From Escherichia coli (GTDB taxonomy: Bacteria > Pseudomonadota > Gammaproteobacteria > Enterobacterales > Enterobacteriaceae): 64,000 nt of DNA. Shown in pieces: positions 31,249 through 50,885 of this stretch (its first letter is position 1; every line of letters starts with the position of its first letter). Position numbers and translations under genes: made by a program. The stretch is taken from the NCBI RefSeq assembly GCF_003334305.1, contig NZ_QOWS01000003.1. The stretch is one strand, 5' to 3'. The notes beneath the pieces were generated by a model. It was not told the DNA's origin. It saw only the letters and a program-made list of their open reading frames with translations, and did no database searches.

Positions 31249-31311
31249 CCAAGCAAGGGAGCGAAAGCTCCCTTTCACATTGTTGATAAAGTCAAATACG
31301 AGTTCGATCGG

Positions 31312-31348
31312 TCCCCTCGCCCCTTTGGGGAGAGGGTTAGGGTGAGGG
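31312..31348. repeat. Second copy of the boxC-like palindromic repeat
   Basis: Same GGGAGAGGGTTAGGGTGAGGG core as at 27243..27275. Confidence 0.45.
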
Positions 31349-31366
31349 GCACAGACCGCACCTGAC

Positions 31367-32869
31367 TTACCTTCTTCTTCCCCCCAGCAAACTCCCCAAC
31401 ATCCCGCGTACAATCTGATTCGTCACCTGGCGGGCGGCGCTTTTCGCCATTGTTTGCACCACACCATCTTTCTTCCCGCCGCGTGGTCCGGTAGTGCCAA
31501 ACAAAATATCCTTTAATCCACCAAGAATGCCGTCATCCACCGCCACCTCTTTCCCTTTCGCGGGGGGATTATTTTGCTGCTCGGCGCTTGCCTGTACGCC
31601 TTTTTGCAACATCTCATAGGCGGATTCCCGGTCCACCTCATCCTCGTACTTGCCATACACCGGAGAGTGATTAATCAAGCCATTACGCTCATCTTCCGTC
31701 ACCGGTCCCATCCGCGAACAAGGCGCAATCACCATCGCCCGTTCCACCACTGAAGGACTTCCTTTCACATCAAGAAACGAGATTAACGCCTCGCCGGTCC
31801 CCAGTTCCTGGATTGCCTTTTCGGTATCAAATGCCGGATTGGCCCGCATGGTTTGCGCCGCAGCTTTTACCGCTTTCTGATCTTTGGGCGTAAAAGCCCG
31901 CAAAGCGTGTTGAACGCGATTACCGAGCTGCCCGAGCACATTATCCGGAATATCAGACGGGTTTTGCGAAACGAACCAGACGCCTACGCCTTTTGAGCGA
32001 ATAAGCCGTATCACCTGCTCAATCTTATCCAGCAGTACCTGCGGTGCATCGTTAAACAGCAGATGTGCCTCGTCGAAGAAAAACACCAGTTTTGGTTTCT
32101 CCAGATCGCCCGCTTCCGGCAATTGTTCATACAACTCTGAAAGCATCCACAGCAGGCTGGCGGCGTACAGTTTCGGCATCTGATAAAGCTTCTCGGCGCT
32201 GAGGATATTGATAACGCCTTTACCGTTGGTATCGGTGCGCATCCAGTCTTTGATATCCAGCATCGGCTCGCCAAAGAAGTGTGCTGCGCCTTGCTGTTCC
32301 AGCGACAACAGTCCGCGCTGGATGGCACCAACCGATGCGCTACTGATATTACCGTACTGATTCTGGAAAGATTTGGCGTTATCGCCGATGTACTGGGTAA
32401 TCGCCCGCAGATCTTTAAAGTCGAGCAGCAACAATCCCTGATCGTCAGCAATACGGAAGATGATATTCAGCACGCCAGATTGCACATCGTTGAGATTCAA
32501 CAGCCGCGCCAGCAACAGCGGCCCCAGATCCGAAACCGTCGCCCGCACCGGATGGCCTTTCTCGCCAAAGATATCCCACACCACCACCGGATTAGCATGC
32601 GGTTGCCAGTCATTGACGCCGATATTTTTAAGCCTTGCGAGTAGTTTTTCCGATGCCGTTCCTGCCTGCGCGATGCCGGTCAGATCGCCTTTCACATCGG
32701 CCATAAACACCGGAACACCGATTTCCGATAGAGACTCCGCCAGTTTTTGCAGCGTGACAGTTTTACCCGTCCCCGTTGCGCCAGTAATCAGCCCGTGACG
32801 GTTAGCCATTCCCGGCAGTAAAAACAGTTCTGTGTCCGGCGTGCGGGCAATTAACAGGGGTTCGCTCAT
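31367..32869 (-). CDS. yjgR: DUF853 P-loop ATPase YjgR
   Basis: About 500-aa ORF with Walker A GATGTGKT; start set at MSEPLLIAR. Confidence 0.85.
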
Positions 32870-32998
32870 GAGATATCCTCCAGTTTCCTGCCTGGAGTAT
32901 AGGCAACGGCTGTGCACTCTTCACCGCTAAATTCAGCAGATTGCGAGACGCCTTCCAAAGAGATTTAAGTGCCGGGCGACAGGCACCCGGCAAAGGGA

Positions 32999-34018
32999 TC
33001 AGAAGTCGGCTTTCAGAACCACGCGATAACGCGCCTTACCGTCGCGCACATGCTGGATGGCGTCGTTAATTTTCGACATCGGGAACAGTTCGGTGGTCGG
33101 CGCAACCTTGCTGCGGGCGGCAAAACGCATCAGCTTACGCAGCTCATAAGGTGTGCCGGTTGCTGAACCAGAGACGCTGCGGTCGCCCGCAATTAACGTA
33201 AAGGCCGGAACAGACAGCGGCGTGAGAACCGCACCGACCGTATGGAAATTACCGCCATAGGTCAGCGCCTCAAAATAAGGCTGCCAGTCGAGGCTGACGT
33301 TGACGGTGTTGATAATGAGATCAAACTGCCCCGCCAGTGCTTTCAGTGCCTGCGGATCGCGGCTATTCACCACTTTATCGGCACCCATCGCCAGCACTTC
33401 CTGCTCTTTCGCCGGATTAGAACTAAAGGCTGTCACCTCGCATCCCATTGCGTGCAGAAGTTTTATAGCGATATGCCCCAGCCCGCCAATACCAATTACC
33501 CCAACGCGGCTGGTGGCAGTGATATGGTGCATCAACAGTGGTTTAAAGACCGTGATACCGCCGCACAACAGCGGCCCGGCAGACTCGATATCAATATTTT
33601 CTGGCAGCGGAATCACCCATTGCCAGTCCGCACGCAACTTCTCGGCAAAACCGCCGCGATTCATAATTGTTGGCACCGCACCTTGCTCGCAGTTGATCTG
33701 ATTACCGCTAATACAGGCATCGCAATGCCCGCAGCTGCGTGCCGTCCAGCCAATCCCGACACGCTGACCGACCTGCAAACCTTTATCCTGTGCGGCGCTC
33801 CCGAGCGCCACCACGCGACCAATCACCTCATGCCCGGCAACCAGCGGATACTGTGAAAATCCCCATTCGTTGTCGATCATCGACAGATCGGAATGGCAGA
33901 TCCCGCAGTAATCCACCTGCACTTCAACATCTTGTGGCTTCAGTTCACCGGGATCGTACTCATAAACTTCCAGTTCGCCGCCCGCTTCTTTTGCGGCATA
34001 GCATTTTATCATCGACAT
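32999..34018 (-). CDS. ahr: NADPH-dependent aldehyde reductase (zinc-type alcohol dehydrogenase)
   Basis: 339-aa ORF with GHEVIG zinc-ADH motif and GIGGLGH Rossmann motif; start set at MSMIK. Confidence 0.9.
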
Positions 34019-34213
34019 TTTTTGATCCTTCTCTGGTGTTGTCTGGGAAGTGTAGAGCATGGCAGGGCGGGGTGCCTGGAGTGTGACAAAGGTTACACAT
34101 CGCTGTATGCAATGCTGAAAATTTCAGCACTTAGCGAAGTGGGAGCAAGCTGGCGCTTGCATGGTGGCGTGCGCTAGGTATAATCCACAACGTTTTCCGC
34201 ATACCTCTTCAGT

Positions 34214-34298
34214 GCCGAAGTGGCGAAATCGGTAGACGCAGTTGATTCAAAATCAACCGTAGAAATACGTGCCGGTTCGAGTCCGGCCTTCGGCACCA
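34214..34298 (+). tRNA. leuX: tRNA-Leu (anticodon CAA)
   Basis: 85-nt sequence GCCGAAGTGGCGAAATCGGTAGACGCAGTTGATTCAAAATCAACC...GGTTCGAGTCCGGCCTTCGGCACCA with long variable arm and encoded CCA. Confidence 0.92.
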
Positions 34299-34310
34299 CA
34301 TCGTATGCAA

Positions 34311-34340
34311 ATCGAGTCGCTCAAGGGCGGCTTTTTTTGT
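34311..34340 (+). terminator. Probable leuX terminator (imperfect hairpin followed by T7)
   Basis: GC-rich imperfect hairpin followed by TTTTTTT at 34333-34339. Confidence 0.45.
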
Positions 34341-34499
34341 GCCTGAAATCCAGTATCCGCAAGGCTTTCCTCGCTTTTTCACTCAACCTAAGTCAACCTG
34401 ATTCAATCTACATCAACTTACTGATGCGGGTACAACTGCGGGTATTTCCCGGTTCGATTATGTTTGTACCCACACAGGGCCCTTGAAAGGATACTCATC

Positions 34500-35764
34500 A
34501 TGGCTCTGAGTGATGTGAAGGTCCGTTCGGCTAAGCCGGAAGCAAAAGCCTATAAACTTACTGACGGTGAAGGCATGGTTTTGTTGGTCACCCTAATGGC
34601 TCCAAATACTGGCGACTTCGTTATCGTTTTGGCGGTAAGGAGAAGATGCTGGCGCTGGGGAAATACCCTGAAGTCTCGCTGGTCGATGCCAGAGGTCGCC
34701 GGGATGAAGCCCGTAAGTTGTTAGCTAACGGCGTCGATCCTAGTGAGAACAAGAAAGCTGTTAAGGTAGAGCATGAGCAAGAGGTGATAACGTTTGAAGT
34801 GGTAGCCAGAGAGTGGCACGCCAGCAATCAGAAGTGGTCTGCATCGCATAGCGCTCGTGTATTGAAAAGCCTCGAAGATAATCTCTTTGCTGCTATCGGT
34901 AAGCGGAACATTGCTGATCTGAAGACTCGGGATCTGCTTGTCCCCATCAAAGCGGTGGAGTCGTCTGGGCGTCTCGAAGTCGCTGCTCGTTTGCAGCAGC
35001 ATACTACCGCGATTATACGCTTTGCTGTACACAGTGGATTAATCGACTACAACCCCGCTCAAGAGATTGCTGGTGCGGTTGCTACGGCGAAAAGACAGCA
35101 TCGTGCTGCTCTGGAACTTAACCGCATTCCTGAATTGCTTCAACGCATCTATCACTATTCTGGCAGGCCGTTAACCCGACTGGCGGTTGAACTCACATTG
35201 TTAGTTTTCATCCGTTCAAGCGAGTTGCGTTTTGCTCGCTGGTCAGAAGTTGATTTTGATACTGCCATGTGGACGATTCCGGGAGAACGTGAGCCACTGG
35301 AGGGAGTTAAGCATTCTCAGCGTGGTTCGAAGATGCGGACTCCACATCTTGTACCCTTATCTCGACAAGCTCTCACCATTCTGGAAAAAATCAAAAGCAT
35401 GAGTGGAAACCGTGAGCTGATCTTCGTTGGTGATCACGATCCGCGTAAGCCAATGAGTGAGAATACGCTTAACAAGGCCTTGCGAGTGATGGGCTATGAC
35501 ACGAAAACGGAAGTGTGTGGACATGGTTTCAGGACGATGGCGTGTAGTTCTTTGATTGAATCGGGATTGTGGTCGAGGGATGCAGTAGAGCGGCAGATGA
35601 GTCATCAGGAACGTAGCTCAGTACGGGCGGCTTATATCCATAAGGCGGAACATCTTGGGGAGCGAATGTTGATGCTGCAGTGGTGGGCTGATTATCTGGA
35701 TGCGAATAGAATGGCGGCTATCACTCCATTTGACTATGCAAAGATTAATAGTTCTTTTCGATAA
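34500..35764 (+). pseudogene. P4-type tyrosine integrase, frameshifted near the N-terminus
   Basis: N-terminal MALSDVKVRSAKPEAKAYKLTDGEGMVLLVT is in frame 3 and the rest (from ...YRFGGKEKMLALGKYPEVSLVDAR) is in frame 2; join is at a CCC run near 34591-34593; C-terminal catalytic region (HGFR...R...Y) is intact. Confidence 0.75.
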
Positions 35765-35965: not shown

Positions 35966-37435
35966 TCAAATAACTCCAAGCTTTGCATACAATTCTTTTT
36001 TCTCTTTCATGCTGTTATCCAATGGTGCTACTCGCAATGCCGCTTTCAAATAAGCCGCAGCACCAGAGTAATCACGCATTTGCTCGCAAACTAAAATGAG
36101 TTGGCTTAACACATGGAACTTCATTGGAGTTGTTTGGTTTACTTTCTCCAATAGTACTCTTGCTTCAGAATATTTCGCTTCAAGGCCAAGGATAGATGAT
36201 TCTAAATACATGGTGGCCGCGTTTTCTGCTTCAGCTTGCTTTCGTTGCAACAGCCAGAAATTTGCTTGACTGATATTGCGTAACTGTAGGTTTGCCTTAA
36301 CTATCAACTCGAACAAAGCTGCTGGTTGAGTCAATTTACCCTCAAGTAAGATCGCTTTATTATCTTCTACAACTTTTTCAAAGTCGAATAAGCGATTGGC
36401 GCGATACAAGGCAATAAGTTGCTGATGTAAAGCTTGTAGATCTTTACTGCGGCTATACTCCTGCGACGCTAATTGAGCAGCTTTTTGGTAAGATTGATCG
36501 GACATTGCTTCAAGTACCGCACTTGACCAGTCCTGAGCAGGTTTAGTTTGAAAAACGGGAGCAATAGCACCAACTTTTAATTGCTTAGTGGCAGCAGAAT
36601 CAAATGCATGAATTAAGTCGGAAATAGTGGAAAAGCGATCCTCCGCTCGTTTTTGTAAACAAGTAAGAACCACTTGTTCCAGGTCCGTATGAATAGAGCT
36701 ATTAATCTCTGTCGGAAGCTTGAAAGGTGCGTGGCGCTGAACTTGTGCTGGCGTATCATGGGGCAGCTTTCCTGTCAGCAGCTGGTATAGCAAAACACCT
36801 AAGCTATAGATGTCGCCCAATAGTAGCTCTTCCAGGCTGCCTCTACGGCTATCGACGTTGGAGAACTCTGGGGCCGAATACAGCACAGTCCCGCCATTTT
36901 CACGGGTACGAACGTAAATTTCTTCTGGTAAAGCTGAGCTGCCAAAGTCCGTCAACTTCACCAGGTCCCGCTCTCCAACCAAAATGTTATGTGGCTTAAT
37001 ATCTCCATGAGATATTGGTACTGGTAATTCGGCCAAATAATGCACAGCACAGAGCACTTGACGATATATTCTGAACAACCGTTCATAGGTCTGGCCAAAA
37101 TTACGCTGCCTGTCATCGAGCTTTTGCGCCAGGGTTTGGCTGGGAAAATACTCCATTTCAATATAGAACCATTCATTATCTATACGGCCCATATCAAAAA
37201 TTTGCACAATATTTTCGTGCGGCTCGACGTTTAAAAGCTCTTTACCTTCGGCAAGCTGACGGTCTTCCCGAGTAATATCCTTAGGGATTTTTACTGCGAC
37301 AATTTTTCCATCTTTCAGGCGTTCCGCCCGCCATACCCAGCCATGGCTGCCATCACCAAGGCATTCAAGTAACAGGTATTTGTCACCAAGGCGTTTATTC
37401 GTCCCTGGCAAAAAATGTGCTGATTTTATATTCAC
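35966..37435 (-). CDS. Eukaryotic-like (Hanks-type) Ser/Thr protein kinase with helical/TPR-like C-terminal half
   Basis: Gly-rich loop LGDGSHGWVW, VAVK lysine, catalytic loop HGDIKPHNIL, DFG and SAPE motifs; GTG start overlaps the upstream stop (GTGA). Confidence 0.75.
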   Translation of the reverse strand: MNIKSAHFLPGTNKRLGDKYLLLECLGDGSHGWVWRAERLKDGKIVAVKIPKDITREDRQLAEGKELLNVEPHENIVQIFDMGRIDNEWFYIEMEYFPSQTLAQKLDDRQRNFGQTYERLFRIYRQVLCAVHYLAELPVPISHGDIKPHNILVGERDLVKLTDFGSSALPEEIYVRTRENGGTVLYSAPEFSNVDSRRGSLEELLLGDIYSLGVLLYQLLTGKLPHDTPAQVQRHAPFKLPTEINSSIHTDLEQVVLTCLQKRAEDRFSTISDLIHAFDSAATKQLKVGAIAPVFQTKPAQDWSSAVLEAMSDQSYQKAAQLASQEYSRSKDLQALHQQLIALYRANRLFDFEKVVEDNKAILLEGKLTQPAALFELIVKANLQLRNISQANFWLLQRKQAEAENAATMYLESSILGLEAKYSEARVLLEKVNQTTPMKFHVLSQLILVCEQMRDYSGAAAYLKAALRVAPLDNSMKEKKELYAKLGVI

Positions 37436-37974
37436 ATCAACACCTCATAGTGAATTCTGTCCAAAACAATCATGTTCAGGTTTTTGATAAATAAAAAGCG
37501 ACTAAATACCACCTCAACATCAGGAGCGGCGATTACTTGGGTACCCGTGGACGAAGTAAAACCCATACGGCATATGTCTTTCAGTTTTTGAGTATCAGGT
37601 ACACCTACTAAGCCTTGGCTCCAGGCACTGAGGACCAGGGTTTTGGGGCAATGATTCCAGCGCTGTGCTGCTTCCAGTAAGTTTTTTAATTTTTCTTCCA
37701 GCTTTTGCTGCCCCTTCGCTGAACCATCAAAGCGTTCAAATTCGATTAAACACACAGGCGATGCAGAAGATTTATGAAACCAGCCCGAGTCAGAGCGAAT
37801 ATCAGCACCAAATGTCCCTGGAGCCGGGCATTCCACTACCGCCATAAATGACTGTTCATGCCCGAATGTATTCCAAACGCTACAGCCCAGGCTGTGGACC
37901 AATACATCCTGGTCCAATAGCTTACCGCTTGCTAAAAGTGGAAATGTCTCATTTACCCAGGCAACTTCAGGCAT
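37432..37974 (-). CDS. Hypothetical protein (about 180 aa; the listed ORF extends to 38031)
   Basis: ORF translationally coupled between the HerA-like gene and the kinase gene; no motif recognised. Confidence 0.5.
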   Translation of the reverse strand: MPEVAWVNETFPLLASGKLLDQDVLVHSLGCSVWNTFGHEQSFMAVVECPAPGTFGADIRSDSGWFHKSSASPVCLIEFERFDGSAKGQQKLEEKLKNLLEAAQRWNHCPKTLVLSAWSQGLVGVPDTQKLKDICRMGFTSSTGTQVIAAPDVEVVFSRFLFIKNLNMIVLDRIHYEVLM

Positions 37975-37981
37975 AGGCACC

Positions 37982-39667
37982 TTAGCCACTGAAAGAGCCC
38001 CAAACACGCAGTACCTCTGGTGATTCACCACCGTGAATTAATGCCTTACTACCAACTTTAACAAGCAGTGGTGCAGGGATTGAACGACCACACACCAAAG
38101 CTTCACCGGTTGATAAACTCGGGAGTTCCTCCAGATCAGCTTTGCTCACCATATCTGATGCTTTAGCTATAAATCGTTGATCGTCAGGGTTCTTTAAGCG
38201 CATCGTAATTAGCGTATTGCACTGAGAGGTCACATCTGAATCTAATTTCGATGGACGCTGGCTCACAATGCCAAATCCAACGCCAAATTTACGACCTTCA
38301 CCAGCGATCTTTTTAATAATGCGGTGACTGACTGCGTTGCCGCCGGCCGGGGCAAAATTATGACCCTCTTCGTAAATGATAAAGCATGGGCGCAGCGGGT
38401 CCGTTTTGCTCGAGGCTGCTTTTAATATTTCACTAGATAACAGTGCACAAATGACTTGCTTAGCGGTATCACTCAAACCTTGTAAGTCAACAACGACTAA
38501 ACGCCCCTGTTGATTGCTCGGGCGACCCACCATTTTGTAAATATCAGTTGGCTCAGCCATTGTTGCGCTGTAAAAACTTTTAGCTTCATTAAGCACACGT
38601 GAAAGCTTCATCGAGGCGACGGCGGCACTACGGCCTGATAACGCCTTCGCCTCAGCTTCAGAAAGGTCGTCCCACTCTTTTAACTCTTCAATACCATCAC
38701 CTAATAAGAAGCGTAGGCGGTTAATATCTCGTGGCTCAGTCTTATCTGCAGAGCGCCAATAACGAATTGCAACATCGAGTACTCGTTGCTGCGGTTCCGT
38801 TAAGCCAGGTAATATTTCAGCAATATCGTCCATTTCAAAATGGTCAAACTGAAGCGCTAATGGCGTATTCTTACTGGCGTATTTATGTTTAAAAGATTCA
38901 TGCTGCGGCGAGTAAACCTGAATACCTGCACCGGCGGCTTGCAGCTTTTCAAAGGTCTGTTTTATCAGTGGCAGTGCTTCTTGATCACGCTTATCGTCAG
39001 TGGCTTCTAAGAAGCTTGAGAATTGCAGATTACCGCCAGCGAGGGCTTTACCGTATTCACCATGTGGGTCAAATACTACTACCGTACCGTTATTAACCGC
39101 AACTAAACGCTCAATAATGCGGCCAACTGTATAAGACTTACCTGAACCCGTCATTGCCAGAACAGCCAAATGCTCAGTGACCAACTTGTTCACGTCAATA
39201 AAAACAGGAACTGTATTCTCACCTTTGTCGTAGCCTACTAAGTTACCTAAGTGCAAACTGGAGTGTTCATTAAATTCGTAAAAATCACTCAAAAACTGAA
39301 AATCGACGGTTTCAACAGCGGTACCCGGGTTAAGCGGGCGACGTGGAATTTTGATTTGACGAGTAACAGGATCGCGGTAACCAACCAGCTCGACCTGAGC
39401 AAACATATTCTCACCAGTTACATTCGCACCGGGCAAAAGCTCAAGCTCGGTTACACCATCGCCAAAGCCGGCGTTATAGAGCATATTAGTACGGCTTATC
39501 TTGGTCACTCGCCCCAGTACGGCGACTTGCCCCTCATCTTTGCGTTCCTGGTGCATAATGCGTACAAACTCACCACGGCGTACTGAAAACGAGTCTTGTA
39601 CAACCATAGTTAACTGACTGGCATCACCAGTGTTACCGACTAATTTACCTAAAACTTTATAAGCCAT
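37982..39667 (-). CDS. HerA/FtsK-like ATPase
   Basis: Walker A AMTGSGKS, DPHGEY motif, Walker B FIIYEEGHNF, arginine-finger region SQRPSKLD. Confidence 0.75.
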   Translation of the reverse strand: MAYKVLGKLVGNTGDASQLTMVVQDSFSVRRGEFVRIMHQERKDEGQVAVLGRVTKISRTNMLYNAGFGDGVTELELLPGANVTGENMFAQVELVGYRDPVTRQIKIPRRPLNPGTAVETVDFQFLSDFYEFNEHSSLHLGNLVGYDKGENTVPVFIDVNKLVTEHLAVLAMTGSGKSYTVGRIIERLVAVNNGTVVVFDPHGEYGKALAGGNLQFSSFLEATDDKRDQEALPLIKQTFEKLQAAGAGIQVYSPQHESFKHKYASKNTPLALQFDHFEMDDIAEILPGLTEPQQRVLDVAIRYWRSADKTEPRDINRLRFLLGDGIEELKEWDDLSEAEAKALSGRSAAVASMKLSRVLNEAKSFYSATMAEPTDIYKMVGRPSNQQGRLVVVDLQGLSDTAKQVICALLSSEILKAASSKTDPLRPCFIIYEEGHNFAPAGGNAVSHRIIKKIAGEGRKFGVGFGIVSQRPSKLDSDVTSQCNTLITMRLKNPDDQRFIAKASDMVSKADLEELPSLSTGEALVCGRSIPAPLLVKVGSKALIHGGESPEVLRVWGSFSG

Positions 39668-40814
39668 TATTCAATCCCTCATCGAGGCCTGCCAACCACC
39701 CTGCCTCAATATCATTATTCTTTAGTGCCTGGTGTAAACCCTGGCGATAAAACGTAGCAAATTTAGGTAAAATACCAAGCTGTTGATAACCAAGTAATTG
39801 TGGCAACGGCATTGCATTACCTTTGTTTTGCATATCCAGCACCATCAGGCGAGAGGCAACTAAATCGAGATCAGCACTTTTCCATTCTGGTTCGTCACCC
39901 GCTAATTGCACCATTTTTATCTGTCCACCTCGGGCACTACGGAAGTGAAAACCAATTAGACCTTGCTTAGCTTCAATATTGGGTTCAATGCGCTTTTCTT
40001 GTTCAGACAAACGAAATGCGATGGTGCGCGAATAGTTGCCTAAAATGCCATTGATAAATCGCAAATCTCCCACGCCAACCAAACTTTCATCCAGTCCTTC
40101 CAGATTTTGCATCAACTCTTTAGAAAACCCATCAGATGCTAAAATTTGTTTGCGTCCTTGTTCGGTACGTAAATCTTGTTTGGCGATACTTACAATGGCA
40201 CTAAAGCGCTCAGCCAAAATGCTCGCAAGTACTACACCATTTTGATTCCAGGGAAAAATTCTGGAGCGATGGTTTTGCCAAAAAGTTTCTATCACTTGTC
40301 TGGTTTTTTCGTACTCTTGTTTATGACGGACATTTCTCTCCAGCGGAGCCATATCCCGTGCTAAAAACAACGGCGTATCCAGCAAAATTAAATCGCCAGG
40401 CTCATAACCTAAAAGTTTTTTCTCAACTAACTGATAAGCCTGACGAATTTCAATTAAATCAAGCCGTTTACGCTGAGCTTCAAAATCAATATCATCCAGT
40501 TCTGATACCGAGTCGCTACCCACCGTGCTGACTTTATTGTCATCTATTAACAAATCTGTGCGCACTGCTGCACTGGCATAAATAAAACCACCCAATACCT
40601 TGTCTAAGCACGATTTAGTCGCAATACCGGCTACGCGTAAATTAACAATTGTGGGCTTGGGGACCGCTTTCACTAAGCCAGCATCACGGAATAGCGGCGC
40701 CACTTGCTCAATATCACGGACCTGTTTAAGCAAGCGTCCTGCACTTCCCGGTAAGCGAAGCTGGCTATCGATGGCGAGCGATTGCGCTAAATTCATCGTT
40801 TTGTTCTCATTCAT
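39657..40814 (-). CDS. Hypothetical protein (about 385 aa), possible partner of the HerA-like ATPase
   Basis: Coupled ORF (11-nt overlap with the HerA-like start); start set at MNENK; no diagnostic motif recognised. Confidence 0.5.
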   Translation of the reverse strand: MNENKTMNLAQSLAIDSQLRLPGSAGRLLKQVRDIEQVAPLFRDAGLVKAVPKPTIVNLRVAGIATKSCLDKVLGGFIYASAAVRTDLLIDDNKVSTVGSDSVSELDDIDFEAQRKRLDLIEIRQAYQLVEKKLLGYEPGDLILLDTPLFLARDMAPLERNVRHKQEYEKTRQVIETFWQNHRSRIFPWNQNGVVLASILAERFSAIVSIAKQDLRTEQGRKQILASDGFSKELMQNLEGLDESLVGVGDLRFINGILGNYSRTIAFRLSEQEKRIEPNIEAKQGLIGFHFRSARGGQIKMVQLAGDEPEWKSADLDLVASRLMVLDMQNKGNAMPLPQLLGYQQLGILPKFATFYRQGLHQALKNNDIEAGWLAGLDEGLNNGL

Positions 40815-40816
40815 GC

Positions 40817-41692
40817 TTATAGCGTTCCTGTGTGTAGCTGCTCGCCAAGTAATGGGGCATAAGCCCAATATTGCGAGGCTTGTAGGCATGTTTTACCGGT
40901 AGCTGTTATGCCCGCGTCGTCGATAAAATCGTGCTGCCGCAACATCTCACCCCGCTTGACAATATCAAGGCTATTAACATCAAACATCAGCTTAACCGCA
41001 TTATGCTCAGACAACGCTTGTAAGTTCATGCCACCGCCAGCGTAGAGTAATAGCAATACAACTAGATCGTGCTTATCTGGCGTGTAGTCAGTTGATGGCG
41101 CTTTAGGTTCGATTATTCGTTCAGCAATGCCTGCATGGTCCACAAACCAATTCAACCAGCTCACCAGGAGCTCACTATGATCGAGTAAAGTCAGCGACCA
41201 CAAAGGTAACGTGGTAAAGGCTAATAGCCCACTGTTGCTGTGTTTTCGTATGTAGCGGGTATGCACTACATCACCGGCCTGGTGCTGGTAGCGATCTGCG
41301 CTGCCAGTAAAGCCAGCAATAGCCTGGTCTGTTTCACTGGCTAGCAAAGCGGTTAGCCCCGGTTCCTGCCCCCTCAAGCTCGCTGGTACTAACTGCCAAT
41401 CCAGTGGATAGGGCAATTGCGCTAATAAGGTAAATTGTTCTGCTTTCAGGTTTATTACCAAAGCGGCACAACCTGCCTGCATAGCCCAGTGATACAGGTG
41501 CTGCATAGTATTAGCGTCAGTCAACTCTTCTGCTTGCACTATTAACAAACCGCTGGCTGGCGGCGAGCTAATCCAATCCTTCATTAAGGGGGTAGCCCCC
41601 GCAACAGTTTGCAAAAAACGGCCTTTACGATTACTGGCCAGTGCCGCAGATAAATAACGACTCATCGCGTCACCTCTACAAACCAGTGGCAA
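40817..41692 (-). CDS. Hypothetical protein (about 290 aa)
   Basis: Coupled ORF overlapping the stop of the 1428-aa gene; no motif recognised. Confidence 0.5.
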   Translation of the reverse strand: MPLVCRGDAMSRYLSAALASNRKGRFLQTVAGATPLMKDWISSPPASGLLIVQAEELTDANTMQHLYHWAMQAGCAALVINLKAEQFTLLAQLPYPLDWQLVPASLRGQEPGLTALLASETDQAIAGFTGSADRYQHQAGDVVHTRYIRKHSNSGLLAFTTLPLWSLTLLDHSELLVSWLNWFVDHAGIAERIIEPKAPSTDYTPDKHDLVVLLLLYAGGGMNLQALSEHNAVKLMFDVNSLDIVKRGEMLRQHDFIDDAGITATGKTCLQASQYWAYAPLLGEQLHTGTL

Positions 41693-44600
41693 AGGTAAGG
41701 CGCATTTTTACAATGCCTTTGTCTACAAGTCCTTTCTGTTGCTCAGGTGTTAACACGGGTTCCTGATTTTGGCTCAAAGCCTTATAAATCGGTTGCCAAT
41801 CCGCCAGTGTTAAGCCTGTATCATTTAATATTTGCTCACCTTGACTCTGCCATTTGGCCTGGGTGCTTTCACACACCTGTTGAAGTTCTCTGACACCCAA
41901 ATTGCTCACATCCTCCAGAGTCAACGCTGCTGGTTCCGCTTGCTTTTGAGAAGCCAATAGCGGTTTTAATAACGGCAGCCAGCTGTTTACCTGTGCGATG
42001 GAGTTGCGTCTTACTTGGTTTAGACGCTCTTCAATTTTAAGTAGCTGGCCTTGAATCGGTGTAAGTTGACCGCGTGCCGGTTTTAAAAGCTCTTCTGGTA
42101 AATCCCGTAACGATGAAAACTGCCCATTGCGCAAACTGTTTTGCATACTTTGACGCTTGCTCTCTGCATCACTGGGGAGATCGGCAATAGCATCTTCAAT
42201 GAGCTGTAATTTCATTACCAGTTTTGGTAGCTCTGCAATGTCATCGGCGAACTGATACTCAGCCGTGGCGCTACTAAGCCATTCTTGCAGTTGTTGTGCA
42301 CGTAGTTTTTGCTCTGTGAGGTTATTAACCAGCTTACTAAATCGTTCTTTGCAGTTGCGGTAGCTGGACAAAATATGCCCCTGAATCTCCGCTATCGGCA
42401 ACTGTTGATCATTGTGCAGGTTTAAACCCACTTCTTGCGCTAAGGCTGAAAGCTTGTCATGCGCTCTACCTAAATCGAGTTTACGCAGGTAATGCAGTAA
42501 GGTATCGCTATCTGCTTGCTGCTCTTTTCGGCCAGTGGCACTGCTGGTATCGTCTTTTAACGCTCCATCTAAAATATGACCTATGGTGCGCAGCGTGTTG
42601 GTGTACAGACGTTTCGGAAAATTCGTCAGCGGGGCACACTCTGTTTCAACATCTATGATTAAATCAACGAGTCGGTTGTTGATACGCTCAGCGCTGCACT
42701 CAACAAACTCGGCAAATAAACAGGCCTGTTCAATCCGTTGATAAAGCGAGGTCGTTTTGTCTTCTAAGCTGAGAATATGGGCATCTTTTAGCATAGGCCT
42801 GGAACTATTAAGCGGTTTAACCTTTGCTACCAGCTCCAGCACTTCAGCGCGTTTGTGGATAAGCCCTGCCAATACTTTCGTGTCGTTGGCCTCGACCATA
42901 TCAGCCAATTGTTCTTCTTGCTGTTTGAGCACGTTAAATAGCGATTGTGCTTTTTCCAGCTGCTCTTTAGCTTCCACGGTGACGAAACCCAGCTTATTTT
43001 TACCCAGTGGCGCGAACATTTCATTAATGCGTGCATAACCATACACGCGGCTCATGACTTCCACATTGGCTGCATAGCTGCCCATATCGTTACCACGGAA
43101 CCAGTTTTGCGCTTCTCTAATGGCATTTTCTAAGCGGGAGCGCGGGTAGTGCTCCCAAATTGCCTGTTTTTCTGTTGGATTGGTTAAAGTGAGTAAGTTC
43201 AGCTCTCCACACCACCACATCCAGTCATTAAACACGCCTTTGGCGGTAACACTCGTTTCAGCCACATAGGCGAAATAAAACTGTTGCTTAAAGCCTTCGA
43301 ATTGCCACTTGTGCTTTTTATTAGGGTGAGCAATACGGGCTAAAAATAATGGGATCTGCGCCTGGCTTCGCTGCACATTATTAAGTTCAGTAAATAGCCC
43401 GGCATGTTCATCGGCAGTGTAACCTTTGGCAATATAGCTGCCCGGCACCTTAAGTTTATCCAACAAGCTGCTCAGCTCATTCACTGGCACGCCGTGTTGC
43501 TGCTGTAAATCGAGAATGCCATTTAACTCAGGGTGAGCAATGGCCAGCTGATACCAGCCTTTAAACAACAGGTCTCGGTCATTCGGTGATAATTTACCAT
43601 CTACCTTTAACGGCCAGGCAATTAAACCGCGCTGCTGCAAACGCTGGCGCCACTTGTGAATGGCATCCGTGGCAAAGGTTGTCAGGGCATGCAGCTTGTT
43701 TTTGAATTTCGCGGTAAAGCTGTCGGCAGTTAAATTCACGCCGTGCAACTGACATGCTGCCAAACTTAAGCCAATACGCTCTAACTGGTCTGCTTCGCTT
43801 GGGTTGACATAATGCAGCAGTATCGCATCACGCAACTCATTTCTTTCATCCAGTCGGCTGTATTGCTCCATGAGATGTGCAGAAGCAGTTAACGCTAATA
43901 CTGGCGTGCGACCATTTTGGTGGCTGTGGTTTGCCGCAAAGGTGTGAAGATTGTTCAGCTCAATTAGGTTGCTGACCCAGGCAAACAAGGCTTTACCTTC
44001 TGGGTGAAGCTTAAATCCATCCAGGGTAAGTAAACCACCCTGGCGGCCACGGGGCTCGGTTAAAATGGCCAAAGGTGCATCGTCGCTGCCCGCTTTATTA
44101 CTCAGCAAGTTTTCATCATAGGTCCAGTTGTTATCAAGTAATCTCACAAAGCCCGTTACACGGGCTAATGCCTTGATGAGCGGCTTCTGGCTACTTTGTT
44201 TGCTAAGTTCACTCATTGCCTGTTCATGAGCGTCGCCCATGGCGGGATCTTTAAAAATCAGTGAGTTTTGCTGGGCACTGCGATAGCGCAAATCCAGGCG
44301 CAGTAACATCGCCACACTGGGGCCAATATGCGTTGCTTCGCTGGCGTCCAGTTCGGTAGTTTCACCCACTAGCTTGTGCCATAAGGCATCGGCAGCGAAT
44401 TCAATCGCTGGGTGGTCATACAGCAAGCTGAGTAAGTATTTAAACTCACCTTTTGACAGAGGTAGTAATACCGCGCCTTTATCGCCGCTTGCGGCTTGTT
44501 CTTTAATTGAAAAAGTACGCAGGTTATCCAGCAAAGTATCTAAGTTCAGCGCTTGATCTACTGCAGGGTAGTACCATTCATCTTTATCGCGGCGGAATTT

Positions 44601-45962
44601 GGCTTGCTCCAGGGCTTGTCGGCACTGTAGGCGGTCAATGCTCAGTTTGCGGTAATGAGCGGCTATGGGTTCCAGATCTTCGTTTTTCAGCGCCAGCAAT
44701 TCTGTGGCATAGCCCATTTCAGCTAAGCGCACGGGTAATTGGCCGTAGAGCAAACTACGACATTCGGTCAATAGTGCCTGGTCGCGAGTTTGAATGCCTT
44801 CTATCGCGCCTTTATCCAGCACATGCCTGGCTACGCGGCCAGAGCCTGCCAGCACAGCTTCAAATAAATCGCCCACATCCTTGATACTGCGGCCTGCTTG
44901 TTGGTATTGGCTCAGCACTGCATCCACATTAGCCATGACCACGTTAAACCAACCGAAGTTGGCACCACTCATGGCGTATGCAGCTTCCACTAAACCAGCA
45001 GGGTAATTAAAACCCAGCTTGCCGTCTTTTAAGAGGCTTGCCACATAGTCTGATACATCGGCAAAGGCATTATGCTCAAGTTCCACTAACTCAAAGCGGC
45101 GTGCGACCGATTGAATTTCGCGCAATTGCTGGCCAAGCAGTGGTGAACACAGCGCTACATAGCGCAACCATGGAAGTTTACGGCGAGGGTCTTCCTCTTT
45201 AATTGCTTTACCAATCAGGCGAATGGCCTGGCCATCGAGGCGTTTATTTTGTTCATCTTCCAGGCCAAAGGTGGCGGCTTCTGCAACGGTTTCCAGCTCA
45301 TCCAGCACCACCAACATATACTGCACGCCAAAGCTCTTTAATACTTTATAGGCGGCTTGCACCAAACTGACTACCAGCGTTTGGTCAGTATAGAGGTCTT
45401 CTTCGCTGTGGTTGGCGTTCAGCTGTAAGGCATCTGCTAACAGTTCAGATTTAAAGCCAAATGGCATTAAGCGTTCATAGGCTTGTTTGGCAATTTCACT
45501 TTGAATCGATCCATCAAAGGTTTGGGTGGCCAGTGGTAATAGCGCCTGATATAAACCAAAAGCAAACCAGTTATCCGAGTTTTGATAATCTGATGCCACT
45601 TGCGAGTAGCGAATGTAGAGCGCCAGGTATTTGTCTTGCGTGTCGCGATTAAACAGCTGCTTATCGTGCAGTTGGCCTTGTTCGTCGCGGACAAACCAGC
45701 CCCTTGAACAGTCGTTAATTTGTGCAACCAATTCATGGCCTAAACGTGATTTACCCCGACCCCATTCGGCTTCGACGGCAAACACATGGGCAAAGCGATC
45801 ATCGTCGTGATCCACCGTATGCAAAAAGGTTTGAAAGCGTTTAAAAAAGCGGCTCTGGCCCACTAACGGGTCGCGAGGTGGATAATCTGATACGCCCGTC
45901 GCCGCCCAGCGATGTTGTTTTGCCAGGCTATCAACCATCTGTTCGTTTAATTCAAAACTCAT
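41676..45962 (-). CDS. Large (1428 aa) P-loop NTPase-domain protein
   Basis: Walker A-like VEAEWGRGKS and Walker B-like YMLVVLDELE in the N-terminal 250 aa; the long remainder has no recognisable motifs; ATGA overlap with the upstream gene. Confidence 0.6.
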   Translation of the reverse strand: MSFELNEQMVDSLAKQHRWAATGVSDYPPRDPLVGQSRFFKRFQTFLHTVDHDDDRFAHVFAVEAEWGRGKSRLGHELVAQINDCSRGWFVRDEQGQLHDKQLFNRDTQDKYLALYIRYSQVASDYQNSDNWFAFGLYQALLPLATQTFDGSIQSEIAKQAYERLMPFGFKSELLADALQLNANHSEEDLYTDQTLVVSLVQAAYKVLKSFGVQYMLVVLDELETVAEAATFGLEDEQNKRLDGQAIRLIGKAIKEEDPRRKLPWLRYVALCSPLLGQQLREIQSVARRFELVELEHNAFADVSDYVASLLKDGKLGFNYPAGLVEAAYAMSGANFGWFNVVMANVDAVLSQYQQAGRSIKDVGDLFEAVLAGSGRVARHVLDKGAIEGIQTRDQALLTECRSLLYGQLPVRLAEMGYATELLALKNEDLEPIAAHYRKLSIDRLQCRQALEQAKFRRDKDEWYYPAVDQALNLDTLLDNLRTFSIKEQAASGDKGAVLLPLSKGEFKYLLSLLYDHPAIEFAADALWHKLVGETTELDASEATHIGPSVAMLLRLDLRYRSAQQNSLIFKDPAMGDAHEQAMSELSKQSSQKPLIKALARVTGFVRLLDNNWTYDENLLSNKAGSDDAPLAILTEPRGRQGGLLTLDGFKLHPEGKALFAWVSNLIELNNLHTFAANHSHQNGRTPVLALTASAHLMEQYSRLDERNELRDAILLHYVNPSEADQLERIGLSLAACQLHGVNLTADSFTAKFKNKLHALTTFATDAIHKWRQRLQQRGLIAWPLKVDGKLSPNDRDLLFKGWYQLAIAHPELNGILDLQQQHGVPVNELSSLLDKLKVPGSYIAKGYTADEHAGLFTELNNVQRSQAQIPLFLARIAHPNKKHKWQFEGFKQQFYFAYVAETSVTAKGVFNDWMWWCGELNLLTLTNPTEKQAIWEHYPRSRLENAIREAQNWFRGNDMGSYAANVEVMSRVYGYARINEMFAPLGKNKLGFVTVEAKEQLEKAQSLFNVLKQQEEQLADMVEANDTKVLAGLIHKRAEVLELVAKVKPLNSSRPMLKDAHILSLEDKTTSLYQRIEQACLFAEFVECSAERINNRLVDLIIDVETECAPLTNFPKRLYTNTLRTIGHILDGALKDDTSSATGRKEQQADSDTLLHYLRKLDLGRAHDKLSALAQEVGLNLHNDQQLPIAEIQGHILSSYRNCKERFSKLVNNLTEQKLRAQQLQEWLSSATAEYQFADDIAELPKLVMKLQLIEDAIADLPSDAESKRQSMQNSLRNGQFSSLRDLPEELLKPARGQLTPIQGQLLKIEERLNQVRRNSIAQVNSWLPLLKPLLASQKQAEPAALTLEDVSNLGVRELQQVCESTQAKWQSQGEQILNDTGLTLADWQPIYKALSQNQEPVLTPEQQKGLVDKGIVKMRLTFATGL

Positions 45963-47260
45963 AACGACGATCCTTGAAGGTTTATTCTATTGGCGGCGCG
46001 TTTTTTATTGGCATAGCAGTTTTGCGCCAGTTGCTTAATGGTCCGTTGTAACGTTTGGCTTTTGTAGCCAAATAGTGGTGCTAACGGCAGGCTATAACAG
46101 GCATCGCTGAAGCTTGTATGAATTCGATATTGGCCGGCCTCTCCACGACCCGCCTCGGTAAATTGCCAGATTTTTTTTGCCAACAATTCGGCAATGAATG
46201 AGCTCAGGACGCGGTTTAGGCGGTTGATGCTTTCCGTGTTCGCATCGAGTGCCGGGTAGAGGGGTATATTGAGCTCACCGAGCAGAAGCACAAGAAACTC
46301 GGCCAAACTACCCAGACTCACCTCATCACCTTCAATGCCCTGTACCGCCACATTTATTTGACCGGGGGCAAAGGCATTTTGCCCGGCAGGTAAGGTGAGC
46401 AACAAACCGCCACGTTGCTCGGCAGCCCAGGCATCTTGCACAAAGATAATTAGACTGAGTAAAAATAACCAGGGCTGTTGGGCGAATAGCTCGGTAAGCG
46501 GCATGTTGTCATGACCCGAGCGGGACACCAATAACCAATCGGCATTGGGTTTAAGGTTATGTTCATCAAGCAAGGTATTAGGGAGTGCTAACAACCGCCC
46601 ACTACACCAGTTATTTGTCAGTTGTTTTGCGGTGACATCCACCGCTTGTATAGGTGCCGGTGGTTCATTTTGTTCGCTCACGGTAAACAAGGTATAGCTG
46701 GTGCGCAAAATACGACATAGCGCGGGAATGGCAGCATTGTCGTTTAGGCTATGACCGAGCAAATCGCGTTCGGTTTGTGCCAGAGGGCCGGCAATGATTT
46801 GCGGCGTGGTGGCAGTGCTTTCCAGCTGGGCTAAGACCCATTCACTGGCATTGCCCAGTTGCTGAATGAGTTTAACCAATACCATTGTGTCACTCATCGT
46901 GCCTGCTTCCTGGCAGCGAGCGGCGGCTAAATTGATCCAATGTTGGCGAACATCTGGGTTTAAGCCCAACAACGCTAATTGCCATTCACCTGACTGGCTT
47001 AAATCGTTAAAGGCATCAAGCAATGGTGCAGTGAGGCTAAAGGCGCTAACGATATCCGTTTCAGCGTCGTTCTTTTTCGGCTGTATTATTGGTTGTAGCA
47101 GTGACCTAAGGGCAGGCACAGCCGCCAATAACAATGCTGCTTTGTTGGCGTTCAAACCACCTTGTTGCCAAAGCTGCAGGCAGAGGTTAAGTGCCGCTTC
47201 GCTATTTACGGGGTCGTTATATTGCCTGGTTGTACTGCTGTCCGTGCCCCTTGTCTCCAT
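45959..47260 (-). CDS. Hypothetical protein (433 aa)
   Basis: Coupled ORF between the HsdS-like gene and the 1428-aa gene; no motif recognised. Confidence 0.5.
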   Translation of the reverse strand: METRGTDSSTTRQYNDPVNSEAALNLCLQLWQQGGLNANKAALLLAAVPALRSLLQPIIQPKKNDAETDIVSAFSLTAPLLDAFNDLSQSGEWQLALLGLNPDVRQHWINLAAARCQEAGTMSDTMVLVKLIQQLGNASEWVLAQLESTATTPQIIAGPLAQTERDLLGHSLNDNAAIPALCRILRTSYTLFTVSEQNEPPAPIQAVDVTAKQLTNNWCSGRLLALPNTLLDEHNLKPNADWLLVSRSGHDNMPLTELFAQQPWLFLLSLIIFVQDAWAAEQRGGLLLTLPAGQNAFAPGQINVAVQGIEGDEVSLGSLAEFLVLLLGELNIPLYPALDANTESINRLNRVLSSFIAELLAKKIWQFTEAGRGEAGQYRIHTSFSDACYSLPLAPLFGYKSQTLQRTIKQLAQNCYANKKRAANRINLQGSSL

Positions 47261-47262
47261 CT

Positions 47263-48741
47263 TTACTCTTCAGCCTCCGCTTGCGCCGCCTCTTCCAGCA
47301 AACTGTATAACTCATCCACATCGCTAAATAGCGGTGTGGCACCTTCAATGGCATAACCCTCAGCGCTCAGTTTGCTTAAAATCGCTTGATCAAAGCTGCT
47401 GTCGCCATCTTCCAGGGCTTGTTGGGCCTGGATTAGTTGTTGCTCAGTCAGTTGGCCTTCGATTAATGACTCAACTAGAGTTTTGGCAGATGCTGTTAAC
47501 TTTTTTGCATATGCTGCCGTAGTAACGGCTAGTCTCAGCTTACTTCCTATTTCTCTATTCTTCGCTATGTCAATCGGAATCAGAATATTTAACAGGTTTT
47601 CTGAAGTCACTTTTGGTACAACGCTGCCAGTAGTCACACCTTTCCAACACGGAAAGTGTTTATCCAGGAACCTACAAATAGACTCAATATCATATTCATC
47701 TTTTACCTTTAAAACCCAAACATGGTTGTTTGCCCAAAACTTTCCATCAGCTACATTTGCACAGCCAATAGAGCCATCTTGCGCAATAATCAGATATTTA
47801 CCGTTGAAATTGAATTCGGTATGAGTATCTATTGGACCTGATGCGCCATAGTAAAAATATGGTCCGGGTACTCTGTCTTCCGATTTAATAGGGTCGCCAC
47901 ATTTGCATTTACTAATGAAATTAGATAGTTTTGATGAATTCCTAAAGGTCATTTGACTATCGGCCGCACGTGCAAACTCAGGAGCTAAAGACACTGCTGA
48001 TAATACCTGTTGTTTCATTCTTCTAGGTTTCAATGTTAATGAATCAACAAGGTTGAAGTGAAATAAATCTTTAATTTTTCTATCAGCCATTCCTTCAAGT
48101 CGTTTCGCCCAAGCGCGTAACTGCTCGGCTTGGCGAACTTTATCCCCGATGTATTTTTGGGCTAGAGGTAAAACTTTAGGAACCGCTAGCGAGCGGACAC
48201 TTGGGAAGTCAATTGCAGGGCGAGTTGCGCCATATGCTTCCTTCCAGATCGCTACTTGTCCGGTTTTGCTATTCAAATATGCCACCAAGAAATAGGCGTC
48301 AACTTTTTTGGGATCGGGCTTGAATCTGACTGAGTGCTGACTAATGTTGGCCGGTAGATGTTTAGCTGACACAACAGCCGATTTACCAAATTTTGCACCA
48401 GTAATCGTAAGTAAAACGTCGCCATCCACTAATCGGCTGCGCTTTAATTTTTCATCATCTTCATCGTTAATAAAAACAGCTTCTTCAGCTTGCAAGAACA
48501 TTTCTTCAACTTCAGAAGTGCGATAAAACTTAACACGGCCTTTTTCTAAATAATTTGCTCCTAAAGGTGTTGCGCCACTAGCCACCCCGCGCTTTGAATC
48601 AATTACCGCTTCTAGGGGCAAAGCACCTAGGTTGTCTTTTATCTTATTAATTTGTCTTTCAAATCGCGGTTGATAGTGCCAAGGATCAATCCGCCTTTCA
48701 GACAATTGTTCGGGTGTTCTTTTAAAAATAGTTGCCATCAC
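47263..48741 (-). CDS. hsdS: Type I restriction-modification specificity subunit (HsdS-like, two target-recognition domains)
   Basis: Two TRD-like halves (RIDPWHYQP...GDVLLTITGAKFGKSAVV; VPGPYFYYGASGPIDT...) separated by a conserved helical spacer (LAVPKVLPLAQKYIGDKVRQAEQL) with a C-terminal helical region; 4-nt overlap with the MTase gene. Confidence 0.7.
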   Translation of the reverse strand: MMATIFKRTPEQLSERRIDPWHYQPRFERQINKIKDNLGALPLEAVIDSKRGVASGATPLGANYLEKGRVKFYRTSEVEEMFLQAEEAVFINDEDDEKLKRSRLVDGDVLLTITGAKFGKSAVVSAKHLPANISQHSVRFKPDPKKVDAYFLVAYLNSKTGQVAIWKEAYGATRPAIDFPSVRSLAVPKVLPLAQKYIGDKVRQAEQLRAWAKRLEGMADRKIKDLFHFNLVDSLTLKPRRMKQQVLSAVSLAPEFARAADSQMTFRNSSKLSNFISKCKCGDPIKSEDRVPGPYFYYGASGPIDTHTEFNFNGKYLIIAQDGSIGCANVADGKFWANNHVWVLKVKDEYDIESICRFLDKHFPCWKGVTTGSVVPKVTSENLLNILIPIDIAKNREIGSKLRLAVTTAAYAKKLTASAKTLVESLIEGQLTEQQLIQAQQALEDGDSSFDQAILSKLSAEGYAIEGATPLFSDVDELYSLLEEAAQAEAEE

Positions 48742-50885
48742 TCACCCCGCTTATAAGCCGATACAATCTTATCCAGATCGTTTGCGACACCGGCGTTATA
48801 GTCTTCGATATTGTTTTTCACCACATAACCCAATGTTTCAGCCACTGCCATAAACACGTCGGTTTGTGGCTCGGGCAAAAATTGCTCTGGCTGGTTGGGG
48901 TTAGCATGGCGTTTTTGTAAATACAAAATCGAGGTTTTGGCCCCCGTACCGGAGAGTTTAAAGCAGTCGCTCGGCAATGAAATTACTGCTTTTACAATAG
49001 CTTTACCGCCAACAAACTCGCCGGTTTTTTCGTCTTTTTTCCCCATAATGTACTCACGGACATAACGGTCGCCGGAGTTACATAAAATACCATCAGGCAG
49101 CACTATTAACAGGCGGCCACCGGGTTTAAGCAGTTGCAGGCAGCGGTCGATAAAAAGTACTGCTGGGTCAATAGTGGCACCTACCGGTTGCCAGTTGCCC
49201 TTGCTATCGGGCTTGCTGCCCAGCGCGAGCCCTGCGGTTGTAGGCTGCAGGCTGTAAAACGGCTTTTTATCAGTCCCGCCCGTTCTGCGCAAATCGGTAC
49301 GGTAGCCCGCCCATTTAGGCTCGCCGTTTTCATCCAGCTCTAAATCACCGATATCCTGCCACTTCATTTTCACGTGGTCATACCAGGCGTTGTAGCTATC
49401 AACGACTTTTTTGGTCGGACGAAAACCACCGAGCACTTGCTCCATATTGGCTTCGTAATTGGCTTTTGAGTTTTGACCATTTTTGCCTTTATCAAATTTA
49501 GGCGTACCGAACGGCGGGTTGGTGCAAATCAGGTCAAAGCTATTCGGCTTCAGAGCGTTAGTAGTGAGTGAGTTGTCGGTATAAAAAATCTGCGCTTTGG
49601 GGGCACCTTGCAATGCCATATTCACGCGGGCCAGCATTACCATGCGTGGTGCAGCATCGGCACCGGTAAATGCACAGTCGCGTAATTTTTGTTTCAATGA
49701 TTCTTTTTTATCGTCGGCCAGCACCAGCTTAAAATCGATCCATTTATCAATCTGGCTTAACGCCACCGAGCCAAAACCAAAGGAGCCACAGGTGGGGTCG
49801 CAGAAACGAAAATCGCCATTGGCTAAGCGCGATCGCATTTCATCGTCATCGTCGATGTCGTGCATAGCAATTTCTAGCATGGCCTGTTTTACTGGGTTTG
49901 GTGTTAAATAAACGCCAAGGCCACCTTTGGATTCAAAGTTAGCGCGTAGGAATACATCAAACACTCTGCCTAGTAAATCTCCTGACACATCAGCCAACGT
50001 GCCGTGTTCTTTCGCGATTTTACCGTCGTTGGTTTTTACCGGACCCAGGTTTTGTATTGCTTCCAGCAAATCCTGATAGTTTTTCGCAACAGACAGTCGC
50101 AGGTGTGTTTCTTTACTAAAGATGGGGTTACGTGAGCCATCATCTGAGATCACAACGTAGTTTTCGTGGCTTTTAAATTCCTCAAAGGCGGCTTTGATTT
50201 GGGCAACGGCTTTATCGCCGTGGCTCTCCACATATTGCCAATCAAAGACATCACGAAAACGCAGGGTATTTCCCTCATCATCTTTAAAGGTAAGGTCTTC
50301 ATCGTGATGCAGGCGGAAAGTTTCTAAAAACAGAAGCTTAGCTACTTCTTCAATAATGTCGTTCTTGTCGTTTACCTTGTCTTTGGTAACGCGATAAACA
50401 TTTTCATGGAAGGCATCAAATCGCTGCATTAAGCGTGTATAAACACGCATCGACCAGCGAAAGGTTGGATCACGCTCCATGCGATCAAAGCTACGTAATT
50501 CTTCCAGACCAGGCAGGGTATCTGCACCGTGGGTACCGTCAGATCCATCGGCACCGAACAAGGCCAAAATACGTTGGTTCAAGCCATCGTCCACAACGGC
50601 ATATACTGGCCAGTCACCTTCGATATCACTTAACAGCTGATAGGCTAAATCATCAAACTTTGCAGTGTCAGCGGCGTATTCCCAATGGCCTTCTGTCAGC
50701 GCAATCAACATGACTGGTGGCGTTAAGTTGCCTTCAACCAGGCCTTGAATGAGACCAGCCTTGGCGAATTCATGCTCGGGTAATTCGACCAATGGCTGAG
50801 TAAACTCGGAGTGCTGTTTGACCAGTTTATTGAACAGTGCTTCTAGCTGCTGTTGCGGGTCTTGTTTTTTTGCTTCTTTTGCCAT
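48738..50885 (-). CDS. hsdM: N6-adenine DNA methyltransferase, type I HsdM-like (715 aa)
   Basis: AdoMet motif I FRFCDPTCGSFGF, motif IV DLICTNPPFG, motif X region GVYLTPNPVKQAMLEI, C-terminal GRLLIVLPDGIL. Confidence 0.75.
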   Translation of the reverse strand: MAKEAKKQDPQQQLEALFNKLVKQHSEFTQPLVELPEHEFAKAGLIQGLVEGNLTPPVMLIALTEGHWEYAADTAKFDDLAYQLLSDIEGDWPVYAVVDDGLNQRILALFGADGSDGTHGADTLPGLEELRSFDRMERDPTFRWSMRVYTRLMQRFDAFHENVYRVTKDKVNDKNDIIEEVAKLLFLETFRLHHDEDLTFKDDEGNTLRFRDVFDWQYVESHGDKAVAQIKAAFEEFKSHENYVVISDDGSRNPIFSKETHLRLSVAKNYQDLLEAIQNLGPVKTNDGKIAKEHGTLADVSGDLLGRVFDVFLRANFESKGGLGVYLTPNPVKQAMLEIAMHDIDDDDEMRSRLANGDFRFCDPTCGSFGFGSVALSQIDKWIDFKLVLADDKKESLKQKLRDCAFTGADAAPRMVMLARVNMALQGAPKAQIFYTDNSLTTNALKPNSFDLICTNPPFGTPKFDKGKNGQNSKANYEANMEQVLGGFRPTKKVVDSYNAWYDHVKMKWQDIGDLELDENGEPKWAGYRTDLRRTGGTDKKPFYSLQPTTAGLALGSKPDSKGNWQPVGATIDPAVLFIDRCLQLLKPGGRLLIVLPDGILCNSGDRYVREYIMGKKDEKTGEFVGGKAIVKAVISLPSDCFKLSGTGAKTSILYLQKRHANPNQPEQFLPEPQTDVFMAVAETLGYVVKNNIEDYNAGVANDLDKIVSAYKRGE

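Follow-up and report, generated by a model that had tools for sequence, protein, structure and literature searches.

Why do yjgR and ahr adjoin each other in some Escherichia coli genomes, and is the short interval between them what remains of a lost catabolic cluster or a version of the site in its own right? The question is raised by a stretch of 64,000 nucleotides of E. coli DNA (the window). A preliminary description had noted a gap of about 130 bp between the two genes, had placed idnR-idnT-idnO-idnD-idnK at this position in K-12, and had proposed that the strain lacks this cluster of about 5 kb. The absence of idn between yjgR and ahr is a fact of gene presence or absence, so a test against chance does not apply. 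Our reading, with a probability of roughly 0.9, is that the 129-bp spacer is the idn-negative ("empty") allele of an old two-allele locus, inherited and shuffled among lineages by recombination.

The yjgR gene (31367-32869, minus strand) is intact and encodes a 500-aa HerA-like P-loop ATPase of unknown role, as found in the open reading frame list and in the RefSeq annotation of E. coli H15. The product gave only weak HerA/CedD-type NCBIfam matches, consistent with its generic RefSeq name, and is 98.8% identical in amino acid sequence to the ST131 YjgR (tblastn). Its ATG is the reverse complement of 32867-32869; the minus-strand open reading frame reaches 32917 on the start side, and the annotated ATG is at 32869. 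The ahr (yjgB) gene (32999-34018, minus strand) is annotated by RefSeq as an NADPH-dependent aldehyde reductase of 339 aa, an identity backed by the NCBIfam equivalog NF047908 (553 bits vs. a cut-off of 470). Its stop codon occupies 32999-33001 (TCA on the plus strand), and its longest open reading frame extends to 34060, with the annotated start at 34018. The gap measures exactly 129 bp (32870-32998), the sequence and the open reading frame list being in agreement, and the gene ends first given, 32869 for yjgR and 32999 for ahr, are exact and recur in the H15 annotation. The plus-strand letters read ...GTTCGCTCAT/GAGATATCC... at 32869/32870 and ...GGCAAAGGGA/TCAGAAGTCGG... at 32998/32999. The tRNA-Leu gene leuX (34214-34298, plus strand; Rfam tRNA, 59 bits, and annotation), a site of island integration, lies 1.2 kb beyond the junction.

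When 31367-34060 was compared with 5,426 complete E. coli genomes (megablast), E. coli H15 (NZ_CP010178.1) gave a full-length match of 100% identity. Window positions correspond to NZ_CP010178.1 positions minus 4,313,180. In the H15 annotation yjgR and ahr are neighbours, both on the minus strand, followed by leuX.

The gene order given for K-12 was borne out. In K-12 MG1655 (NZ_CP012868.1) yjgR is followed by idnR, idnT, idnO and idnD (all on the minus strand), idnK (plus strand), ahr and leuX, so that yjgR and ahr are not adjacent there but are separated by five idn genes. The same arrangement was found in ST131 isolate 86, BL21, DH5alpha and others. Between the ATG of yjgR and the stop codon of ahr, MG1655 has 5,126 bp and ST131 5,129 bp, vs. 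129 bp here; the idn block itself spans 5.13 kb. In idn+ E. coli idnK runs towards ahr, and their stop codons are 3 bp apart. In the window yjgR and ahr are contiguous, and tblastn with the five Idn proteins returned zero matches, in keeping with the proposed absence of the cluster.

The spacer consists of two parts. The 39 bp directly upstream of yjgR (32870-32908, minus strand) are common to the idn-less and idn+ alleles, which are identical from yjgR through this segment (end ...GGAGTATAGGCAACG) and divergent beyond it. These 39 bp are identical in the window, in the ST131 idn+ genome and in E. coli MLI104K2, whereas E. albertii and both Citrobacter loci have a nearly identical sequence. 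They contain GGAGG (the complement of 32877-32881), a putative Shine-Dalgarno sequence 7 nt before the yjgR ATG, a short inverted repeat (32878-32883/32892-32897), and TATACT (the complement of 32896-32901), a candidate -10 element; both roles are read from the letters. A consensus scan gave no full sigma-70 match for yjgR on the minus strand, and its single plus-strand match is not meaningful.

The other 90 bp (32909-32998) are specific to the idn-less allele, and the breakpoint between the alleles lies after ...TATAGGCAACG, about 7 bp upstream of the candidate -10 element. In idn+ genomes the 5.1-kb idnR-idnT-idnO-idnD-idnK block stands in their place. Aligned to the whole idn+ interval, the 90 bp gave a best local score (Smith-Waterman) of 14, when compared with a shuffle mean of 13.5, and 46 of 100 shuffles scored as high or higher. 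No idn remnant was detected in the spacer, either by tblastn with the five Idn proteins or by Smith-Waterman alignment with shuffles, and no IS or repeat remnant is present at the empty junction. Since nothing in the idn+ allele corresponds to the 90 bp, the two alleles differ by a replacement (90 bp vs. 5.1 kb) rather than by a plain insertion or deletion.

Within the 90 bp, positions 32957-32988 (minus strand) hold a G+C-rich hairpin (32967-32988) followed by the tail AAATCTCTTT, and were picked out as a terminator-like site. The hairpin has a 9-bp stem, and RNA folding gave a minimum free energy of -22.3 kcal/mol for a 76-nt context (z = -1.8). A hairpin with a T-rich tail on the ahr strand is most simply taken as the probable intrinsic terminator of ahr. 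A hairpin is found at the matching position of the E. albertii spacer, and one of different sequence in that of Citrobacter werkmanii. An Rfam scan of 32500-34600 matched leuX only, and no known RNA family was found in the spacer.

Most E. coli genomes have the idn-less arrangement, K-12 being of the minority type. Contiguous yjgR and ahr were found in 3,213 of 5,426 complete genomes (59%; megablast), and a 99-bp spacer query (32900-32998, containing the 90-bp segment) matched 3,223 of the 5,426, the match covering 80% or more of the query in 3,212 of them and the identity being 95-100% in nearly all. The window thus has same-strand neighbours separated by a 129-bp spacer that is free of idn remnants and homologous to the spacer of idn-negative genomes. 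The idn block was matched in 2,055 genomes (38%), nearly at full length in 2,038 and over less than 80% in 17. By subtraction, about 150 genomes belong to neither class; about one matching place in each suggests that they have lost yjgR or ahr. The idn state varies even within ST131, isolate 86 being idn+ and strain 4993 idn-. The overall value of 38% agrees with the published prevalences of ∼31-83%, a pangenome study having reported idnODRKT in 83% of the E. coli genomes that are pks-positive and in ∼31% of those that are pks-negative, with one ST95 clade devoid of it (PMC8545132).

The site was then compared across species through a YjgR scan of species-representative genomes, which yielded at least six Enterobacteriaceae loci. 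Nothing lies between ahr and yjgR in E. albertii (NBRC 107761) or in C. werkmanii (NBRC 105721), and the spacer is 130-140 bp long in both. The E. albertii spacer is 92% identical to that of the window (∼90% over the 90 allele-specific bp) and the C. werkmanii spacer 72% identical overall (65% over the 90-bp segment), with an exact 20-mer, GCACTCTTCACCGCTAAATT, common to the window and C. werkmanii inside the allele-specific part. Citrobacter sp. FP75 carries ahr-idnK-idnD-idnO-idnT-idnR-yjgR, with the yjgR-side junction as in idn+ E. coli (GGCAAyG/TCC...). Its idn genes are 78-83% identical in nucleotide sequence to those of E. coli, and its flanking genes behave alike (yjgR 82%, ahr 84%). 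In these few genomes each allele occurs in Escherichia as well as in Citrobacter, with a divergence equal to that of the flanking core genes.

In Enterobacter cloacae and Enterobacter sp. Ag1 a single gene for an ATP-dependent glycerone kinase lies between ahr and yjgR. The glycerone (dihydroxyacetone) kinases are 548-568 aa long (E. cloacae DSM 26481, locus L006, 8217-9863; Enterobacter sp. Ag1, locus L007, 8224-9930), and that of E. cloacae DSM 26481 scored 576 bits vs. TIGR02361. The slot is thus occupied by the kinase gene, by idn or by a short spacer, and therefore carries different sugar-metabolism cargo in different genera.

These results bear on the direction of the event. The idn+ state may have arisen by horizontal acquisition, idn having inserted into a site that was ancestrally empty, with the window representing a state that was never invaded. 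This reading, which we regard as possible but on the whole unlikely, would account for the empty arrangement in E. albertii and C. werkmanii, for the different cargo in the two Enterobacter species, and for the G+C content of the idn block (0.40-0.51), which is modestly below that of the flanks (0.52-0.55). However, a plain insertion would have retained the 90 bp. The block contains idnRTODK alone, with no integrase or IS annotated in it; no direct or inverted repeats bracketing it were found; and it is positioned on the far side of ahr from leuX, so that neither mobility genes, nor flanking repeats, nor a tRNA insertion mark it as a mobile genomic island. Moreover, idn in FP75 occupies the same junction, and its divergence from the E. 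coli genes matches that of the flanking core genes, which looks like long residence rather than recent import.

A very old presence/absence polymorphism, predating or crossing the Escherichia-Citrobacter split, may also be proposed, in which niche-dependent selection on L-idonate/5-ketogluconate use would keep both versions and recombination would move them. The presence of each allele in both genera would fit such a history, which we nevertheless rate as doubtful in this full form. The age and direction of the event are suggested by few taxa, namely the at least six Enterobacteriaceae outgroup loci.

A recent, lineage-specific deletion, which would have taken idn from an idn+ ancestor and left a scar, is very improbable and, in our view, largely refuted. 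It could draw on K-12 and the 38% of genomes that carry idn at exactly this site, on the partial clusters among them (the 17 of 2,055 genomes above), and on one record with idnR and idnT fragments between yjgR and ahr. However, the junction is not built of idn-flanking sequence, the 90 bp having no source in the idn+ allele, and no IS or repeat remnant accompanies it. The same spacer occurs in 3,223 genomes of many lineages, and the arrangement, far from being confined to a single recent lineage, is that of 59% of E. coli genomes and also occurs in two further species. The 90 bp are kept in E. albertii and C. werkmanii with a sequence of their own, and would therefore represent an old allele, not a fresh deletion.

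The record with idn fragments is E. coli MLI104K2 (NZ_CP116925.1; locus L083, 8395-9322), in which yjgR and ahr are 928 bp apart. Long homopolymer runs of G, A or C make up most of this interval, and its annotation lists a hypothetical protein and a LacI-family pseudogene. The 928 bp also include the left junction of the idn+ allele, pieces of idnR and idnT (84-88% identity) and, from the spacer of the empty allele, its right half. We considered it as an intermediate allele and set it aside; the homopolymer runs point to a probable assembly artefact, or possibly to a decayed hybrid allele.

The preliminary description had also called for a search for idn elsewhere, the window being 64 kb of a 4.74-Mb genome. 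A query of yjgR-ahr plus 1.29 kb of idnO-idnD (blastn, word size 11) matched a single place in the H15 chromosome, yjgR-ahr itself, and no second place for idnO or idnD was found. Plasmids were covered by the collection-wide result: among the 5,426 genomes idn was never found on a plasmid, and the median was one place per genome. When a segment of the leuX island was joined to the idnO/idnD query, a single place was found in 59 of 60 island carriers among the matches listed, at least 60 E. coli genomes being tied at 100% on the island part. That idn resides at another locus or on a plasmid, so that the empty site would be uninformative on metabolic capacity, has nothing positive in its favour and, given one chromosomal place in H15 for the query with idnO-idnD and no plasmid copy in the collection, is almost certainly wrong.

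We return to the two-allele reading. One allele comprises the 90-bp segment with the probable ahr terminator, and the other has in its stead the 5.1-kb GntII/L-idonate cluster, with idnR-idnT-idnO-idnD on the minus strand and idnK on the plus strand. The strain would have inherited the empty allele, with no recent deletion. Both alleles would be old, and would pass between lineages when homologous recombination takes place in the flanking genes, which are highly polymorphic and adjoin the leuX island hotspot.

The flanks are consistent with this scheme. The yjgR and ahr genes are mosaic: 300-bp windows are 89-99% identical between E. coli strains, vs. 98-100% for lptF/lptG, and values down to 89-92% were obtained even between two ST131 genomes (31367-34018 vs. 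L002, L085 and L086). Flank similarity does not follow idn state. We infer that frequent homologous recombination beside the leuX hotspot is the route by which the alleles are redistributed, a mechanism that the mosaic flanks fit.

Other variation was noted near the locus. The yjgR gene of ST131 isolate 86 contains an internal stop. The lptG-yjgR intergenic region (31249-31366) is also allelic, with 118 bp and a CCCCTCGCCCCTTTGGGGAGAGGG-type palindromic repeat in the window; in K-12 and the two ST131 genomes it is 160 bp long and carries a REP-like GCGCCAGCGTCGCATCAGGC element. Both versions have the lptG terminator hairpin. Beyond leuX lies a defence island (34500-56065), whose first gene is a frameshifted integrase. 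In its nine-gene core cluster (35966-50885, minus strand) PADLOC matched mad6 (Ser/Thr kinase), mad8/HerA, mad5 (HsdS-like) and mad2 (HsdM-like). From these matches the cluster resembles a methylation-associated defence system of the MADS type; five of its proteins, including one of 1,428 aa, are unassigned. It is followed by McrBC and a phosphorothioate-DNA-dependent endonuclease. At least 60 E. coli genomes match the kinase/HerA segment of the island at 100% identity. Elsewhere in the window, a copy of IS621 (IS110 family) is found between mgtA and ridA (12453-13433), a frameshifted "DNA-binding protein" pseudogene between tabA and argF (18619-20208), and an ISKpn26-like IS5 element between nanC and fimB (about 59745-60725), upstream of the fim switch recombinase genes.

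The consequence for the strain (H15 or an identical relative) is metabolic. There is no idn cluster, and the strain is therefore without L-idonate dehydrogenase, 5-ketogluconate reductase, the IdnT transporter, the IdnR regulator and the second gluconokinase. From the established roles of IdnD, IdnO, IdnT and IdnK, the strain is predicted not to grow on L-idonate or 5-ketogluconate through the GntII route. For annotators, the K-12 gene order is not to be taken as the default at yjgR-ahr. Beyond such bookkeeping the finding has little importance, and the weight first given to it, that of a strain-background marker rather than a novel feature, was upheld, idn being already listed as accessory in published pangenome studies. 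The idn-less junction is ordinary strain variation that is already on record; of the two long-standing versions of the site it is the commoner, and the locus offers a tidy example of what would be a long-lived structural polymorphism in a recombination-hot region beside leuX.

When compared with known systems, the closest counterpart is the K-12 GntII (subsidiary gluconate/L-idonate) locus, yjgR-idnR-idnT-idnO-idnD-idnK-ahr-leuX, whose L-idonate catabolic pathway was reportedly described by Bausch et al. in 1998, a work to which PMC6054384 refers indirectly. The window shares its flanking genes, their orientation and the 39 bp upstream of yjgR. In contrast, K-12 holds five genes in 5.1 kb and a catabolic pathway where the window has 90 bp and the pathway is absent. 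As in the window, ahr directly adjoins yjgR with a homologous spacer in E. albertii NBRC 107761 and C. werkmanii NBRC 105721, although the terminator hairpin of the latter differs in sequence.

Salmonella enterica, like E. coli, is variable for this cluster, which may be present, absent or decayed: idnD is STM4484 in Typhimurium, idnDOTK is absent in Typhi, and idnT and idnO are pseudogenes in Pullorum, a variation linked to gut vs. extra-intestinal lifestyle (PMC6138749, PMC6054384). Salmonella idn genes have been reported to affect fitness in the farm-animal intestine (PMC6138749).

Within E. coli, idn-negative lineages such as the pks-negative ST95 clade IV and most pks-negative strains lack the five idn genes as a block, like the window (PMC8545132), and idnROKDT is among the variably present operons of another pangenome study (PMC10269509). 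Studies of this type (PMC8545132) give gene presence/absence only, whereas the structure of the junction, and the finding that the empty allele is conserved outside E. coli, come from the present analysis. What is added to published work is the recognition of the empty site as a distinct, conserved allele with a sequence of its own across genera, not a scar.
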